Source: an uncultured Eubacteriales bacterium
Lineage (GTDB): Bacteria; Bacillota; Clostridia; Christensenellales; Christensenellaceae
Length of the DNA stretch: 47,068 nt
NCBI GenBank assembly: GCA_902473035.1
Contig: CABRQG010000001.1
Coordinates: forward strand, 1-47,068
Reading direction: 5' to 3'
Shown piece after piece: positions 5,721 through 34,887 of this stretch (position 1 is the first letter of the stretch; the number at the start of each line of letters is the position of its first letter). A model generated the notes under the pieces. It saw nothing but the letters and a program-made list of their open reading frames with translations. It did no database searches and was not told the origin of the DNA. A program made the position numbers and the translations under genes.

Positions 5721-6086
5721 TTACTTCTTTACAACCACCTCTTCTACTCCTGGCCTAAGCATTAATACCAGCTGTTCAAACAGTCGAATGACCAACGTCT
5801 GGTGTTCGGGCTTTAACGCCTGTACCACTTCCAAAGATCTCAAAAGCAGTTGAGCCGTAATCATAGATGAAGTATCTTCTGTCTGTTCTAGCAGGTATGA
5901 TACCGGTACATTAAATGATTCCGCTAAACGCTCTAGAGTATCAAGTGTGGGATTGGCACGAGCTTTTTCTATATCGCACAACACCGTTTTACTCAGACCA
6001 ATCTCTTCTGCACATTCCATCTGCGACTTACCCTGCAAGTTGCGCAATTGGCGAATTTTGTCCGCTAAAGTCTTTCTGGTTTCCAT
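5721..6086 (-). CDS. XRE-family HTH transcriptional regulator
   Basis: HTH_3-like segment GKSQMECAEEIGLSKTVLCDIEKARANPTLDTLERLA. AAGGAGG sits 8 nt before ATG 6086; the ORF track start at 6104 runs through the RBS. Paralog of 34516-34887. Confidence 0.75.
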   Translation of the reverse strand: METRKTLADKIRQLRNLQGKSQMECAEEIGLSKTVLCDIEKARANPTLDTLERLAESFNVPVSYLLEQTEDTSSMITAQLLLRSLEVVQALKPEHQTLVIRLFEQLVLMLRPGVEEVVVKK

Positions 6087-6544
6087 ATCCATAACCTCCT
6101 TCACTTATACTGTAAGGAAGTTTTTTCCATTCTTCAAACCAGTATACAGGAAAATCGCTATCGTTATAACGTGATTTATTCTACTTTTTTACAAGTTCTT
6201 ACAACACAATCGAGATGCAATATCCATTCTCCATTCCCCAAGTTCTAATGCCTTTTATCCCATATTTACGCCCAATTCTTTCTATTTTTCAAACCATTCA
6301 GTCCATCCTATTTTTCACTTTTGCCCCCTAAAACTAGTGTCTTCTATTCTATATCATTATATTGGAAACAGAATACCGGTAGTTTTCCACCTTTTCTCCC
6401 ACAAAAAAGGATCCTCCATGGGTAATTTTGTGTCTGATCTCATACTATCAGCTCGATAAAACCCCTGGTGATCCTATTTTGCACTTTCCCTACATTTAGT
6501 AAAAGCTTTCAAACAAGGAGAAATTTATTTACGCTAGATGATTA

Positions 6545-27374: not shown

Positions 27375-27402
27375 ATTGTAGCAGAGTCATTTGATCTGTC
27401 AA
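27375..27402 (-). promoter_or_regulatory. ddh promoter
   Basis: Minus strand: TTGACA (27397-27402), 16 nt, TACAAT (27375-27380). Confidence 0.6.
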
Positions 27403-27549
27403 GAGATATCTCTCCCTAAGAAATAAAATGCATCCAATAAGCCCATTATTTTTCCTTTTTGCTAATCCGCTTGAATCAAGTAAGGCACAAGATTGTCTGA
27501 TTAGAATATTTATTTGCCATTTAGAGAAGCGAGGTTCTGTTCAACAATC

Positions 27550-28064
27550 TACACCATATTAGATGTATACAAAGTGTTCTCACCTTTTTTATGTTTCAAA
27601 ATACACTATATTAGATATCAACTAAACCTATGATAAATCTAACAAGAGCAAAACTAGCATTGGGATATTTTACTCCTTATTAGATGTAAAACATATATTC
27701 TACACCTAATTCGGTGTTTACTTTTCTTTAGTCAAAAGATTTTTACACTATATCAAGTGTATAATCCTATCGTTTTGCCACCCCTAAATACACCTAATAC
27801 AATGTATTTTATGCCCACAGAAATTGCTCTACCATTTATCCTTATTAGTTGGCATTTCTCTTTATCACATGCACTTATTCAAAGATATCGCCTTTTTATA
27901 TCATTTTAAGTGTTTTTTGTAAAGTCCCGGCACCCTCCTTCTTGTATTTTTTACACTTAATTTAGTGTAAATAGTTCAACATCATGTTTTCCAAATTAAG
28001 CGTATTTCGTTTTATCGCTTCCAAAGGGTTGACTGCCCCCTTTTTTTACATCATTTTAGATATT
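27550..28064. repeat. field of nine 18-bp palindromic motifs TACAYC-N6-GRTGTA in ORF-free AT-rich DNA
   Basis: Copies start at 27550, 27602, 27671, 27701, 27744, 27789, 27897 (weak), 27952 (perfect arms TTACAC/GTGTAA) and 28047. Confidence 0.8.
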
Positions 28065-28144
28065 TCCTCACGCGTTTATTTTATAGAATCACTTTCCTCA
28101 TCTAAGTGGCACACATCCTTTTCTCCATTCAATTTTTTCTCATA

Positions 28145-28172
28145 GCAAAAGAAGCAGCTCCAAAGCTGCTCC
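28145..28172 (-). terminator. terminator of lipoprotein paralog A
   Basis: Minus strand: AGCAGCT-TTGG-AGCTGCT then TCTTTTGC. The same 38-nt block recurs at 29610-29647. Confidence 0.75.
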
Positions 28173-28185
28173 CTCACTACTTACT

Positions 28186-29379
28186 TTAATTACTTACCCT
28201 TAATCCTCTCTCCTCCTGTATCTGAGCGTAGAGAGCATCTAAGTCTCTCTCCCCTAGATAATAGCTTTGTATATCTATACTACTAACAGTATCTCCCCTT
28301 ATTTCAATCTTCAGCCAGTATTCTGTCACATCTTCAACTGGTTTTTCATCCTTAGATCTATCTCGAGTGCATACACTCCAAGTATTCCCCTGTTTTTGAA
28401 CTCCTAAGTCAATATATCCATCTATTTTCAGTATGTCCCGATTGGTTTTTGCAAATTCTTCCAACGTTTTTCCTTTCCATTGCTCTTCGGATATTGGTCT
28501 GCTGTAAAAATTTATACTCGATATTGTGAAATCCCCATAGGCCTCACATAATTCTTCCATCTTGCTTAGAAATCCTATTCCTCGCAGAGTAGTACAATCT
28601 TGGTAAGAACTATTCATACCGTATATTCTACTCTCAACTATGGGGTATTTTTCCGTTGCCGTATCCGTATACACTGGTTCACTTCCCCTATATATGCCAA
28701 ATTCTTGTTCTGATATATTCTCCAGTATCTCTCCCTGATATTTTGAAGGCTGCTTTGTTGTTTGTTCCTGAAGTACGTCTTCTTCTTTTTCCTCAGGATG
28801 CGCTCCAAAACGCCACATATCTATACACTCTAATATCATCTTCCCATATTGATCATCAAACTGAAAATCTACAGAATATCTTACATCTTCTTCGGACACT
28901 GGCTCTCGAGTAAATTCACAAGTTCCCGGCTTGCAATACCAGGTATATCCGATATAACAGCTGCCTAACGCCCCACTCCAATTTGGACCTGCTAATTCCT
29001 TCATTTGATCCAAGTTTTCAATAGGCTCTGAAAATCCACTAAAAGATACCTCATCTGGCATTCCCCAGCCTTCATATGCTTCCAGCATTTGCTCCAAGCT
29101 ATCTTGTAGTTTAATTCCTCGCCAGGTTTCATAAGCCAAGTTTTCCGTGTCAAAGTAGCTTGTATACTTTATATAAACTCTCGCCAAACTAGGCTCTCCT
29201 TCCAAATCGATGTGCTTATCTAGCTTGCCATCTTTATAGAGGCCAAAATCCGCTAAAGTTGCCCCTCCTGTTTTGGGTTCTTTATCATACGGCCTATTTT
29301 CTGGCTCCCCAGTGCACCCTATCACCCCTATTAGACATGCACATACTAGTATGATGATCCCTATAATCCGTTTCCCCAT
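28186..29379 (-). CDS. two-domain lipoprotein, paralog A
   Basis: Start set at MGKRIIGIIILVCACLIGVIGC (lipobox), by alignment with paralog B and the shared GA-rich RBS. The ORF track begins at 29463. Confidence 0.7.
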   Translation of the reverse strand: MGKRIIGIIILVCACLIGVIGCTGEPENRPYDKEPKTGGATLADFGLYKDGKLDKHIDLEGEPSLARVYIKYTSYFDTENLAYETWRGIKLQDSLEQMLEAYEGWGMPDEVSFSGFSEPIENLDQMKELAGPNWSGALGSCYIGYTWYCKPGTCEFTREPVSEEDVRYSVDFQFDDQYGKMILECIDMWRFGAHPEEKEEDVLQEQTTKQPSKYQGEILENISEQEFGIYRGSEPVYTDTATEKYPIVESRIYGMNSSYQDCTTLRGIGFLSKMEELCEAYGDFTISSINFYSRPISEEQWKGKTLEEFAKTNRDILKIDGYIDLGVQKQGNTWSVCTRDRSKDEKPVEDVTEYWLKIEIRGDTVSSIDIQSYYLGERDLDALYAQIQEERGLRVSN

Positions 29380-29485
29380 CCAAATCTTTCCCTTTTCCTT
29401 TTTTCCCATTATCCCATGTTTTCCCACTTTCGTCCATTGCAAATTCGGTTTATTTCGACACAAAAACTATTTCATCCAGTATTTT

Positions 29486-29591
29486 TACTCTATATCTTTT
29501 AGATGTACGGTACAGGCGATTTTCCTTTACACCTGATTTACATCTTATCTGATGTATTCTCATCATTCTATATTACATCTCATTAGGTGTA
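29486..29591. repeat. three to four further copies of the TACAYC-N6-GRTGTA palindrome between the paralogs
   Basis: 29486-29507 (longer spacer), 29528-29545 overlapping 29539-29556 (perfect TACATC/GATGTA), and 29574-29591. Confidence 0.75.
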
Positions 29592-29611
29592 AACCTCTTC
29601 CTCTCCCCTTA

Positions 29612-29639
29612 GCAAAAGAAGCAGCTCCAAAGCTGCTCC
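29612..29639 (-). terminator. terminator of lipoprotein paralog B
   Basis: Hairpin identical to 28145-28172. Confidence 0.75.
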
Positions 29640-29655
29640 CTCACTACTATTTTAA

Positions 29656-30816
29656 TTACTTACCGAATCCTCTCTCCTCCTGTATCTGGGCGTACAGGGC
29701 GTCTAGGTCCCTCTCTCCTAGATAAAAAGACCGTAAAAAAATCTCTTTCACTTTGCCATTTTCTGTGGTCACATCCATCCAGTATTCCGTCACATCCTCC
29801 ACCGGCTCTTTTTGCGTGCGCCTATCTCTCGTGCATACACTCCAGGTATCTCCCTGCTTCTGCATCCCAAATTCTAAAGTGAGCGATCCTTTTATCAAAT
29901 CTGGATTCTGTTTGGCAAATTCATCTAGTGTCAGTCCTTCCCATTGCTCTTTGGGTAAGGATTCTACCTTCCTTGCATAGCTCACCCTCGTAAGATGAAA
30001 CTCCCCATAGGCCTCACAGAGCTCTTCCACACTGCTCAGATATTCTATACCCCGCAGCGTATTGTATTTATCACGTTTGTCTATCTGATATTCCGCGTAT
30101 GGATTTTGCTCTGTTGCCGTTGCCGTCTCTGCTGGTTCACTTCCCCGGTACAGCCCAAACTCTTCTTCTGACATATTCTCCAGTATTTCCCCCTGGTATT
30201 GGGCGGGCTCCTGATTTGTTTCTATCTCTTTTTTTATCTCAGGATGCTCTCCCGAACGAGTAAGTCTAATGTGAGTTAATACTATCTCGTCGCCCGCTCC
30301 CTTACCGAATGAAAAATTGATCGTATATTCCACATCATTTTCTGTTTTCGGCTCCCTGGTAAACTCACAGGTCCCCGGCTTGCAATACCAGGCATATTCT
30401 AAACTGGCATGAAATATTTCTAAGTCCGCCGTTTGCCTAATCAATTCTAACAGTTCATTCATGTCTGTTATATTGCCAGCCTTTGGATCGCTTTGATCTG
30501 GCATTCCCCAATCTTTATATGCCTCTGCCACCTTCTCTATACTGTCTGTTAACTGAATTCCTCTCCAGGTTTGATACGCTAAATTCTCCGCATCTAATGG
30601 GCCCTCATATCGGATATATAATGCCCCTCTAATTGCTGAACCCGTTAAATCCACATGATCGTTCAACTGGCCATTTTCGTACAACCCAAAATCCGCCAAG
30701 GTTGCCCCTCCTGTTTTGGGCTCTTTGTCATATGGCCTATTTTCTGGTTCCCCAGTGCACCCTATCAGCCCTATCAAACATGCACACACTAGTATGATCC
30801 CTATCATCCGTTTCAT
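29656..30816 (-). CDS. two-domain lipoprotein, paralog B
   Basis: MKRMIGIILVCACLIGLIGC lipobox. The first ~45 aa and last ~35 aa are near-identical to paralog A; the middle is divergent. Confidence 0.7.
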   Translation of the reverse strand: MKRMIGIILVCACLIGLIGCTGEPENRPYDKEPKTGGATLADFGLYENGQLNDHVDLTGSAIRGALYIRYEGPLDAENLAYQTWRGIQLTDSIEKVAEAYKDWGMPDQSDPKAGNITDMNELLELIRQTADLEIFHASLEYAWYCKPGTCEFTREPKTENDVEYTINFSFGKGAGDEIVLTHIRLTRSGEHPEIKKEIETNQEPAQYQGEILENMSEEEFGLYRGSEPAETATATEQNPYAEYQIDKRDKYNTLRGIEYLSSVEELCEAYGEFHLTRVSYARKVESLPKEQWEGLTLDEFAKQNPDLIKGSLTLEFGMQKQGDTWSVCTRDRRTQKEPVEDVTEYWMDVTTENGKVKEIFLRSFYLGERDLDALYAQIQEERGFGK

Positions 30817-30900: not shown

Positions 30901-32514
30901 TCAGGGCATATTAAATATTGTTGCCTCCAGTTCGCGCACTAATTTTTCGATCACATAATCTGCAATTTCATCCAGGTCTTCTCGCATTAAGGGCTTACCG
31001 TTTTGGTTTTCCGTTTCTTTCAGTTGGTTTTTTTTATATTCCTCTTTTATCCACCGCATAGCTTCTTGCGCCAACTGTTTACTATACGAGTTGGTAAATA
31101 CCTTCGCTCCTTCTGGAATATAGGCAATTTCCGGCCCGTGTTCTCCTACCTCCATAAAACCCCCTGGAGCATATTGGCTTCCTAGCGCCATGTGTCCATA
31201 GGAAGGGGCGAAGCCGCCGTATTCTTTAAAGGAGTCGTACCATGTTTTTGTTTTTGTATTGTTTCTACTGTATAATTCTACTCCAGTATTCAATAAATTA
31301 GGATCTAAATGTCCATTTTCAGCTTTAAAATCTTTCCATAATTTCGGTATCCAGTCCATGCTATCTCGTTGCTGCATAAGCGTATAGCTTTCATTTTTCC
31401 AATAATCGATCTCTTTTTGTATGTTTTGTACCAATTCTAATTGAAGATCCCAATCATCCCATAGATCCATTATTGTACGAGATTCAAGCATATCTACTCC
31501 AAATACAGATTCCTGGGCTGCAAATTGTAACAGCTCCTTCGTTGGCCTTCCCAGATAATCTGTTTGCGCTTTTTGATATGCATAACTATCAATTAGAGAA
31601 AACGCTTGAAATAAGTTAACGTTCACCCCATATTTTTCTTCAATGGTATCCCATATCTCTGAATCAATAAACGCCTGTGCTGTATCGCTATCAAAAATTC
31701 CTTCTTGAATGAGTTCTATAATCCCATCTTGATTTTCTTTAATAGCAGCAATCTCTTGATCTGAAAACTTTTGTCTTTCTATTATTTCCCCATCTATTTC
31801 AATCGTTTGAGTTTTATTTTTAGGATTATTAATATCAATATAAACGAGCATCTGTTCATATACCAATTCAGCAAATTTTTTAACTTTTTCTAAAGAATCT
31901 TCCCTCATTTCTTTTAACTCTGCCATTTCTCTTGGAAGCTTGTCTTCATATTCCAATACTTGACTATTGGCATATTCAATGGCAGGTCCAAACGTCGCAC
32001 CGCTATAATATCCCATAAGCAGATAATCTTGTTCGTTCACTACCTCATAATCGTTGTTATTCCCCTCCAAGCTAATATCAATATGTGACCCATAATATAT
32101 CTGCGGCTCGCTAAAGGCTTCTTCATAGAATTGTACATTTTCTTTAAATTCCTCTATATTAGTATTGATTTCTTCAATTTTTTCAAAATCTTCTCTACCA
32201 ATGTACTTTACTAGTGCTACCAGCAAATCAGCCCCCATATATGACCCTATAAACTGTAATCCAATTTTCACATATTCCCATACATCTGCCCCTTCATCAA
32301 TCGCATTCGCTACTTGTAAGGCCAAATCGATCACATCTGTCGGCCCTGGGGTGAAATCCACATCCGTAACCCAATCCGTCACCGAGTTCAGCATCTTTTT
32401 ATCGATTTTTGTCTGCTGCTTATTCACTTTTCCAACGTCTTTAGCTAAGCCCTCTACGCTGCCTTCCAAAGTGTCCAGCTTTTTTCTTATCTCCTTATTT
32501 GTTAGATCTCTCAT
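30901..32514 (-). CDS. phage tail tape-measure-like protein (short, probably a remnant)
   Basis: Coiled-coil N-terminus, then a hydrophobic segment. The C-terminal GGFMEVGEHGPEIAYIPEGAKVFTN motif resembles the VGExGPE..P.G..V motif of Gram-positive phage tape-measure proteins. AGGAAGGGGAAAG RBS before ATG 32514. Confidence 0.5.
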   Translation of the reverse strand: MRDLTNKEIRKKLDTLEGSVEGLAKDVGKVNKQQTKIDKKMLNSVTDWVTDVDFTPGPTDVIDLALQVANAIDEGADVWEYVKIGLQFIGSYMGADLLVALVKYIGREDFEKIEEINTNIEEFKENVQFYEEAFSEPQIYYGSHIDISLEGNNNDYEVVNEQDYLLMGYYSGATFGPAIEYANSQVLEYEDKLPREMAELKEMREDSLEKVKKFAELVYEQMLVYIDINNPKNKTQTIEIDGEIIERQKFSDQEIAAIKENQDGIIELIQEGIFDSDTAQAFIDSEIWDTIEEKYGVNVNLFQAFSLIDSYAYQKAQTDYLGRPTKELLQFAAQESVFGVDMLESRTIMDLWDDWDLQLELVQNIQKEIDYWKNESYTLMQQRDSMDWIPKLWKDFKAENGHLDPNLLNTGVELYSRNNTKTKTWYDSFKEYGGFAPSYGHMALGSQYAPGGFMEVGEHGPEIAYIPEGAKVFTNSYSKQLAQEAMRWIKEEYKKNQLKETENQNGKPLMREDLDEIADYVIEKLVRELEATIFNMP

Positions 32515-32777
32515 TGTCTTTCCCCTTCCTTTTTTTGGAGGAGAGCAGCTGTTTTCTTTCCTGCTCTCCTCATTTGCTTGCAAATGGTGCTGCCAAAACC
32601 CCGCGTCCTATTCGGTGGAACATCTAGCCTAGGCCTATTCTTCTTAGCAATGGCTTCTTGGCCAATTAGCCTATGGCCGCTTTGGAATGAGCTCTGTTGC
32701 TATTTCACCGCCCGGTCTTTGTCATTTCAACAATCAGCCCATAATAGTAGGCGCTGGAGCTTCTGGCTATTTATCCA

Positions 32778-34192: not shown

Positions 34193-34351
34193 CTGTAGTA
34201 CCATCCCTTTCTTTTGTTTCAATCATCCATTTGCATTTTATGATTCCCAAAAATATCTATATTATTTATTTTTTGCTTCTTTTTTTAAAACAATTTTTTT
34301 AATAAAAATATCTTTTTTTCGCTTTATCGGTAATTATAAAATAGTATGATA

Positions 34352-34360
34352 TGTTATAAT
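34352..34360 (+). promoter_or_regulatory. extended -10 promoter element upstream of the XRE gene
   Basis: TGTTATAAT (TGnTATAAT). No good -35 box. Confidence 0.4.
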
Positions 34361-34515
34361 GTAATTTAAGAGTTCTCATTTTAGGGGATTTTCCTCAAAA
34401 ATTCCTCTAAATTGGGATTTCCACCTAAATAAAAGTTCTATTTCGCCAGTTTACCATCTTGTAACTTCCCATAATTTACCTTATTCTTTTTACAAAAAGA
34501 GGATGGTGTCGAATT

Positions 34516-34887
34516 ATGGATTTAAAAGACGTATTAGCCGAAAATGTAAAAAACTCTCGCCTGAAGCATCATTATTCACAGGAAAAGTTCGCAAATGAAG
34601 TGGGTCTTAGCGCATCTCACCTAAGGGATATTGAACACGGCAAGGGCAATCCCACTTTGGATACCATTGAGCGAATCGCCAAAGGCTTCAATGTTCCCAT
34701 CGAGAGCATGATTTTGCAGGAGCCCGACTTGCCGGAAAACATTAAAATCATATCTCACTTTTTAGCGAGAAATTTAAACTGTATTTTAAAGCTGCCTCCT
34801 GAACAGCGCACATTGTTCGTCCGGGTATTTGAACAATTGGTTGTCATGCTGTCGTACAATATCGACTCAGAGGATTTGATTGAATAA
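34516..34887 (+). CDS. XRE-family HTH transcriptional regulator (paralog of 5721-6086)
   Basis: HTH_3 segment YSQEKFANEVGLSASHLRDIEHGKGNPTLDTIERIA. Shares the C-terminal motif EQRTLFVRVFEQLVVML with the paralog (EHQTLVIRLFEQLVLML). Confidence 0.8.
   Translation: MDLKDVLAENVKNSRLKHHYSQEKFANEVGLSASHLRDIEHGKGNPTLDTIERIAKGFNVPIESMILQEPDLPENIKIISHFLARNLNCILKLPPEQRTLFVRVFEQLVVMLSYNIDSEDLIE

Follow-up and report, generated by a model that had tools for sequence, protein, structure and literature searches.

Arrays of operators for Cro/CI-type repressors are well known from temperate phages, the OR and OL triplets of lambda being an example, and they are the closest known kind of system to the palindrome array analysed here, which is an orphan and unusually dense example. 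Many repressor sites per element are also found in phage phiC31, as its conserved inverted repeats, and in mycobacteriophage L5, as its stoperators, and some of these lie off the main genetic switch. Those sites are spread over the whole genome of a phage that encodes the repressor, whereas the sites of the present locus are packed in one orphan tract. The tract lies in a 47,068-nucleotide stretch of DNA from an uncultured Eubacteriales bacterium (hereafter the 47-kb window), between the promoter of ddh and the terminator of a lipoprotein gene.

A preliminary description of this DNA had listed nine 18-bp palindromes in an AT-rich tract without open reading frames (ORFs). All nine were confirmed, and their positions are given in Table 1 with those of the neighbouring features; the score of a site is its number of matches to TACAY-N8-RTGTA over the 10 specified arm positions. 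The same description had spoken of a dozen sites but listed nine; missing from its list were u1 and u2. Only six sites in the whole 47-kb window are perfect, namely four in the tract plus u2 (29539) and u1 (29574). The symmetry of the motif is incomplete at its centre (roughly TACAYC-TAAT-AWG-RTGTA), and sites were found in both orientations. No ORF of 60 aa or more exists between 27402 and 28145, the largest being 53 aa, and the GC content is 0.30 over 27501-28000 against about 0.45 elsewhere in the window, both as had been described.

Table 1. Coordinates of the palindromes and neighbouring features in the window.
Feature	Position	Strand	Sequence	Remarks
ddh promoter	27375..27402	-	TTGACA-16-TACAAT	No site overlaps; nearest site ~150 bp away
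s1	27550..27567	.	TACACCATATTAGATGTA	Arms 10/10
s2	27602..27619	.	TACACTATATTAGATATC	Arms 8/10; 9/10 in L007, L009, L002
s3	27671..27688	.	TACTCCTTATTAGATGTA	Arms 9/10
s4	27701..27718	.	TACACCTAATTCGGTGTT	Arms 9/10; s3-s4 gap 12 nt
s5	27744..27761	.	TACACTATATCAAGTGTA	Arms 10/10
s6	27789..27806	.	TACACCTAATACAATGTA	Arms 10/10
s7	27897..27914	.	TATATCATTTTAAGTGTT	Arms 8/10; TACACTTAAAATGATGTA (10/10) in L007, L009
s8	27952..27969	.	TACACTTAATTTAGTGTA	Arms 10/10
s9	28047..28064	.	TACATCATTTTAGATATT	Arms 8/10
Intrinsic terminator of lipoprotein gene A	28144..28180	-		Hairpin about -20 kcal/mol, then U-rich tail
Lipoprotein gene A	28186..29379	-		Paralogue of B; likely start ATG 29379 (MGKRIIG..., lipobox)
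Promoter-like element	29408..29436	-	TGGACG-17-GATAAT	Upstream TG; counterpart before every lipoprotein copy in all strains
u3	~29484..29505	.		Degenerate third site with indel; spacer upstream of lipoprotein gene A
u2	29539..29556	.	TACATCTTATCTGATGTA	Arms 10/10; 17-nt gap to u1
Promoter-like element	29593..29565	-	TTTACA-17-TAGAAT	Overlapped by u1; start region would be covered by u2
u1	29574..29591	.	TACATCTCATTAGGTGTA	Arms 10/10; overlaps promoter-like TTTACA-17-TAGAAT
Terminator of lipoprotein gene B	29612..29648	-		Copy of 28144-28180 terminator
Lipoprotein gene B	29656..30816	-		Paralogue of A
560-aa protein	30901..32583	-		Weak matches to phage tail tape-measure families
Phage tail assembly chaperone, 123 aa	32778..33149	-		phrog_4976, E = 1.3e-12; marks prophage remnant

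A shuffle control, which the preliminary description had set for this excess of palindromes, was performed with 2000 dinucleotide-preserving shuffles of 27400-28150 (751 bp, GC 0.32). Nine sites were observed at 8/10 or better, compared with 1.46 +/- 1.20 in the shuffles; six were observed at 9/10 or better (0.11 in the shuffles), and four at 10/10 (0.0045). The excess stood, as 0/2000 shuffles reached nine sites, and the observed count was likewise matched by 0/2000 at each of the other two thresholds. Base composition was therefore rejected as the source of the sites, because no composition-matched shuffle attains the observed counts. The centre-to-centre spacings in the tract are 30, 43, 45, 52, 55, 69, 95 and 108 bp; this irregularity agrees with the earlier exclusion of a CRISPR array or tandem repeat, and Tandem Repeats Finder reported the terminator hairpins only and nothing in the tract. 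No dispersal of the repetitive extragenic palindrome or MITE-like kind was seen, perfect copies occurring only in two neighbouring intergenic regions of the 47 kb, and in three strain variants (21-kb loci) the sites were confined to the lipoprotein/ddh intergenic regions. The palindrome cluster is real, dense and local.

The surrounding genes were assigned by Pfam and PHROG scans. On the minus strand, the order is rubrerythrin, tail chaperone, 560-aa protein, lipoprotein B, terminator, three sites, lipoprotein A, terminator, the nine-site tract, the ddh promoter, ddh and the his operon. The phage-type genes, that is, the tail chaperone and the gene with the weak tape-measure matches, lie 0.7-5 kb from the sites on the same strand. 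From this gene content the locus is recognisable as a prophage remnant inserted beside ddh. The ORF of lipoprotein gene A extends to 29463, and the lipoprotein family is tiny, with 4 clusters among 5.8 billion proteins. No DNA match to an intact relative of the prophage was found among 50,697 phage records, the tape-measure-like protein had no relative in IMG/VR, and two exact strings from the tract and spacer were absent from IMG/VR. A pseudogene remnant was considered as the origin of the tract and rejected, since tblastn with the lipoprotein, tape-measure-like and chaperone proteins and a sensitive blastn of the island, all run against the tract, returned the shared 39-nt terminator only. 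On the plus strand, a promoter-like TTGCCA-17-TACAAT was noted at 27775-27803, whose -10 hexamer falls inside s6 and which would drive antisense transcription toward the 3' end of lipoprotein gene A. A further very AT-rich region of 0.3 kb (34222-34516, GC about 0.32), which separates the gene for rubrerythrin from a divergent gene for a 123-aa Xre/RstR-like HTH protein, contains no TACAY-N8-RTGTA site.

The same palindrome was searched for in viral contigs of IMG/VR, where a scan for three perfect sites gave 26 loci. At 20 of the 26, a 66-78-aa ORF of the HTH_26 family (PF13443, Cro/C1-type) starts 27-123 bp from the cluster, and the remaining six are mostly exact tandem repeats. Five IMG/VR loci (L133, L138, L141, L150 and L155) consist of exact tandem repeats with a period of about 16-52 bp and a unit containing TACAY-N8-RTGTA, with no HTH_26 gene alongside. 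In a reverse test, 80 phage loci (64 unique) were fetched by alignment of the ~70-aa HTH_26 protein alone, and perfect sites were present in 55 of the 64 unique loci. The positions of 136 perfect sites relative to the start of the HTH_26 gene were highly concentrated, with 83 at -200 to -1, 52 at +200 to +299 and 1 elsewhere in the ~3.2 kb per locus. An enumeration of all exact palindromic 5-mer arms upstream of the HTH_26 gene recovered the nested (T/A)TACAT(T/G)A..., and the same enumeration in control flanks did not recover the motif. This demonstrates a tight association of TACAY-N8-RTGTA with phage genes for small HTH proteins.

The phage operators are typically separated by gaps of 16-17 nt (33-35 bp centre-to-centre) and are nested in promoters, TTGACA being followed after 1-2 nt by an operator whose final TA begins TATAAT. 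The HTH_26 module adjoins an integrase or sits just after the lysis genes, a place at the end of the late region. In the IMG/VR loci L156-L235 (e.g. L157:1350-1790), the HTH_26 gene is bracketed by operators on both sides, with up to four at -155 to -45 and one or two just past the stop codon, and every one of the downstream operators lies within a TTGACA/TATAAT promoter. For the HTH_26 subfamily, neither the PDB nor the literature searched yielded a characterised homologue.

The window resembles these phage loci in several respects. Its sites have the TACAY-N8-RTGTA arms around an AT-rich centre, six of them scoring 10/10 and two 9/10; there are several copies per region, and individual sites are alike, as seen in TACACCGAATACGGTGTA of L142 beside AACACCGAATTAGGTGTA of the window and TACACCTAATAGAGTGTA of L036 beside TACACCTAATGAGATGTA of the window. 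The 17-nt gap between u1 and u2 equals that of the phage triplets, u1 overlaps a promoter-like element, and the setting is a prophage, the tract lying at the end of a late-gene (tail) remnant. As to spacing, u1 and u2 are 35 bp apart, s3 and s4 30 bp, and the other spacings in the tract are 43-108 bp, compared with 33-35 bp in the phages. The window differs in having nine sites in an ORF-free 0.5 kb, compared with 2-7 in the phages (maximum 7 in ~90 phage loci), and in a tract without nesting of -35 hexamer, operator and -10 hexamer and without visible constraint. Hexamers resembling a -10 element do occur in the tract, namely TATAAT from the last TA of s5 on the plus strand and, on the minus strand, TAGAAT after s4 and TAAAAT after s3; none of the tract sites, s5 included, has a -35 hexamer at the canonical place. 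At u1, TTTACA-17-TAGAAT is arranged differently from the phage nesting.

A regulator gene placed as in the phages would start within ~30-160 bp of the sites or end just before them; no regulator gene is present in the window. A tblastn search of the 47-kb window with eight members of the HTH_26 family gave no match, and no member of the two further HTH families linked to the palindrome (the 'MKEYYEILRELRED' Xre family and the Gp49-associated antitoxin family, described below) is encoded in it. The earlier observation that no cognate regulator is evident in the window is therefore upheld, as none of the three palindrome-linked regulator families is encoded there. The two Xre genes of the window (5721-6104 and 34516-34887) were considered as sources of the binder and rejected; the motif is absent from their own upstream regions, and their products showed only generic HTH similarity to the three operator-linked families.

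GTDB genomes were scanned for pairs of strict sites separated by 8-38 nt, and at least 118 loci were obtained. Among the matches listed (at least 118 loci), the gaps peaked at 8 nt (at least 30 loci), 14-16 nt (at least 39), 23 nt (at least 11) and 38 nt (at least 7), and the species of the window was absent from these matches. Because the gap distribution is sharply peaked, the pairs are real operator pairs and not chance occurrences. In the 15-nt class, they lie on the promoter of a Gp49/HigB-like toxin gene, which is followed by a gene for a 104-aa HTH antitoxin; the operator is TACACCATATTTGATGTA, as close to the window sites as the HTH_26 operators are. A nearly identical toxin and antitoxin module was seen in L020, L026, L060, L069, L073, L112, L116 and L128, which include diverse Bacillota MAGs and Ruminiclostridium, and this suggests recent horizontal spread of the module. 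The 23-nt class is from Bacteroidales, and the one checked locus adjoins HipA. A Bacteroidales MAG (L034:1351-2915) and Yersinia aldovae (L125:5437-6354) have palindromes of the same shape upstream of genes for HipA-family kinases; these are presumably HipB operators.

In the 8-nt class, from Oscillospirales and other Clostridia MAGs, the gap holds TTGACA, and the final TA of the second site is also the beginning of a TATAAT. The pair is flanked on one side by a 66-77-aa Xre gene ('MKEYYEILRELRED...') and, in many cases, on the other by a gene for a secreted protein, a lipoprotein or a BspA-like protein. This Xre module ('MKEYYEILRELREDNDLTQ...') is widespread, being found in L014, L019, L030, L032, L058, L065, L067, L076, L081, L083, L084, L099 and others. 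The shape of the palindrome is thus common to at least three unrelated small HTH families (HTH_26, the 'MKEYYEILRELRED' Xre family and the Gp49-associated antitoxin family), and each of these families is therefore a candidate source of the binder for the window sites. The operators of the type II antitoxins (Gp49/HigB-like and HipB-HipA) are comparable to the window sites in that they are paired and that TACACCATATTTGATGTA is near-identical to TACACCATATTAGATGTA of the window. They differ in their fixed 15-nt (or 23-nt) gap and in lying directly on the toxin-antitoxin promoter, and a homologue of either toxin or antitoxin is absent from the window.

The comparison of strains revealed that the lipoprotein genes vary in number, with one copy in L009, two in the window and three in L007. 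Every additional copy has the same terminator ahead of it, followed by sites, and the first copy, directly after the tape-measure-like gene, is without sites. The tandem units (window 28186-30816; L007:10001-14070; L009:10001-11167) each end in an identical 39-nt terminator, and several metagenome contigs break exactly at this repeat. A metagenome scan with the terminator string gave one further variant, which ends before the tract. In a diverged lineage (L011 and L236), a single site follows each terminator at the same position as u1, despite the diverged flanks. One of these loci (L011:1796-1935) contains a solo terminator-site-terminator unit from which the whole lipoprotein gene has apparently been deleted; the junction of the deletion is inside the palindrome, TACACCTAATGACAAGTA being joined to the last codons of the lipoprotein gene.

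Whether the tract is conserved had been raised as a check, and the 868-bp tract before ddh proved to be kept in all strain variants at about 96% identity. Between the window and L007, 6.0% of the tract positions differ (arms 6.7%, centres 2.8%, spacers 6.4%; arms against the rest of the tract, P = 0.8), and 1.4% of the adjacent ddh promoter segment. The third codon positions of neighbouring genes differ by 0.9-6.2%, so that the arms diverge about as fast. No purifying selection on the tract sites was detectable in this comparison, which has low statistical power. The relatives carrying the tract are all about 96% identical and the nearest ddh relatives 68% identical, the lineage being an isolated one of the human gut, and phylogenetic footprinting is therefore without informative depth. 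As the arms diverge as fast as the spacers and near the neutral rate, the tract has the look of a relic, or of an array under loose constraint.

On balance, the palindromes are probably orphan operators for a dimeric regulator of the Cro/Xre HTH superfamily, of the type found in temperate phages and mobile elements of gut Firmicutes, although we hold this with little more than even confidence. As judged from the sequence comparisons, the ~70-aa HTH_26 phage regulator family is the leading candidate for the binder. We infer that a protein would bind here, that it would come from a family of this kind and that its binding would repress transcription; the earlier proposal of a dense field of sites for a dimeric DNA-binding protein is supported as a predicted reading. 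The sites lie at the edge of a decayed prophage that has kept its tail chaperone, its tape-measure-like gene and its lipoprotein 'moron' genes, and the array is called an orphan because a regulator gene no longer adjoins the sites. Upstream of lipoprotein A, u1 and u2 overlap a promoter-like sequence, and equivalent sites stand before every extra copy in other strains. A repressor that matches the sites, whether encoded at another place in the genome or brought in by a related phage, would therefore repress this putative promoter. For a regulator encoded elsewhere, the sites ahead of the lipoprotein copies could plausibly still serve as operators.

In front of ddh, the nine-site tract lacks a promoter in the canonical position and evolves near the neutral rate. 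It is most likely a relic left by promoter-operator units, and at most a repressor sink under weak constraint. That the orphan array is kept as a functional platform, either as a repressor sink or decoy or as a sensor of a phage regulator, is distinctly unlikely. As a decoy, the array would titrate the Cro/CI-type regulator made by a phage of the same family, either resident or incoming; as a sensor, it would couple the expression of the expandable lipoprotein genes, whose products are possible superinfection-exclusion proteins, to the presence of the phage regulator. In either version, the decayed prophage would 'listen' to its relatives.

Orphan phage-type operators have to be weighed against control by the host. 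The sites could be operators of a host-encoded chromosomal regulator of surface or secreted proteins, and the tract a functional control region for ddh and/or the lipoprotein genes. The 8-nt pairs in Oscillospirales and Clostridia MAGs, which adjoin lipoprotein, BspA-like and secreted-protein genes with a small Xre gene opposite, are consistent with this, as are the resemblance of u2 (minus strand TACATCAGATAAGATGTA) to the sites of that class (TACATCAGATTGGATGTA) and the position of the window sites in front of lipoprotein paralogues. However, the window encodes no Xre gene of the 8-nt class, and its two Xre genes (5721-6104 and 34516-34887) have no such site upstream. About 150 bp separate the ddh -35 hexamer from the nearest site upstream of it, no sequence constraint between strains is seen in the tract sites, and the first lipoprotein copy has no sites; we therefore regard a host regulator as unlikely, with some chance of being right. 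Very improbable, in our judgement, is an origin of the sites as by-products or substrates of recombination that changes the lipoprotein copy number, or as iterons of a defunct replicon. The copy number does vary between 1, 2 and 3 among strains, and the solo terminator-site-terminator unit of L011 has its junction within a site, but the change in copy number is explained by unequal crossing-over within long stretches of identical sequence, namely the 39-nt terminator together with the paralogous genes, and neither a recombinase nor a replication gene is found in the window. In L086, an unrelated locus, a RepL gene has two identical sites next to it; the window sites, however, are palindromic, lie in both orientations and are irregularly spaced, unlike iterons. 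Where the preliminary description had offered phage- or plasmid-type operators or iterons left by the prophage remnant, the phage operators are favoured and the iterons find little support.

A role in RNA, with the tract transcribed and the palindromes forming hairpins of a structured non-coding RNA or processing or attenuation signals, is extremely improbable. The tract folds better than its shuffles (z = -4.8 on the minus strand and -3.0 on the plus strand), yet such scores are to be expected whenever a sequence repeats one palindrome many times in both orientations, and the 6-7-bp hairpins that single palindromes form, at about -6 kcal/mol, are weak and AU-rich. No Rfam family matches the tract at E <= 1, the tract is closely preceded on the gene strand by the strong terminator of gene A, and elsewhere the same palindrome sits between -35 and -10 hexamers, which indicates a role at the level of DNA. 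The suggestion of a family of short hairpins, though conceivable, has nothing specific in its favour. The resemblance to NrdR boxes that had also been pointed out, by which the ATP-cone repressor of ribonucleotide reductase (RNR) genes would bind the sites as an extra target or sink, can hardly be correct. NrdR boxes are 16-bp partial palindromes located upstream of RNR operons. They have conserved C4, A6, A8, T9, T11 and G13, of which C4 and G13 are critical (PMC13584703), and are paired with a linker of 15-16 bp (or 25-26 bp) (PMC12051234). The 16-bp cores of the window sites do share the outline of ACAC, an AT-rich centre and GTGT; s5 and s8 agree at 5/6 conserved positions, and the linkers of two adjacent pairs, at 14 and 27 bp, fall on the limits of what is tolerated, namely 14-17 and 24-27 bp (PMC12051234). 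However, C4 and G13 occur together in only 3/11 sites in either orientation (by the criteria of PMC13584703), 0/11 sites agree at 6/6 positions and only those two at 5/6. The linkers between the tract cores are 36, 53, 14, 27, 29, 92, 39 and 79 bp, and that between u2 and u1 is 19 bp, so that no pair has the canonical 15-16 or 25-26 bp (PMC12051234). The strongly kept outer T and A (TACA...TGTA) lie outside the NrdR box. No RNR domain was detected among the window ORFs scanned against Pfam, in agreement with the preliminary description, and RNR genes made up 0 of about 30 flanking genes checked at loci with the 18-bp pattern elsewhere. The likeness is thus one of general shape.

The tract can be explained in ordinary terms, as regulatory debris or borrowed control sites of a temperate phage beside strain-variable lipoprotein genes; it is neither a new regulon, nor an NrdR target, nor a new kind of system. 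The more reusable result is the operator shape itself. TACAY-N8-RTGTA is common to at least three small Cro/Xre families, acting in gut-Firmicutes phages, toxin-antitoxin modules and surface-protein genes, and no published description of this shared operator, or of the HTH_26 subfamily and its operator, was found in the literature. The shared shape provides a sequence handle for genetic switches in uncultured gut phages, and it could predict cross-talk between prophages and remnants. If it is true that the array titrates or senses a phage repressor, it would illustrate how a remnant can influence decisions on lysogeny.
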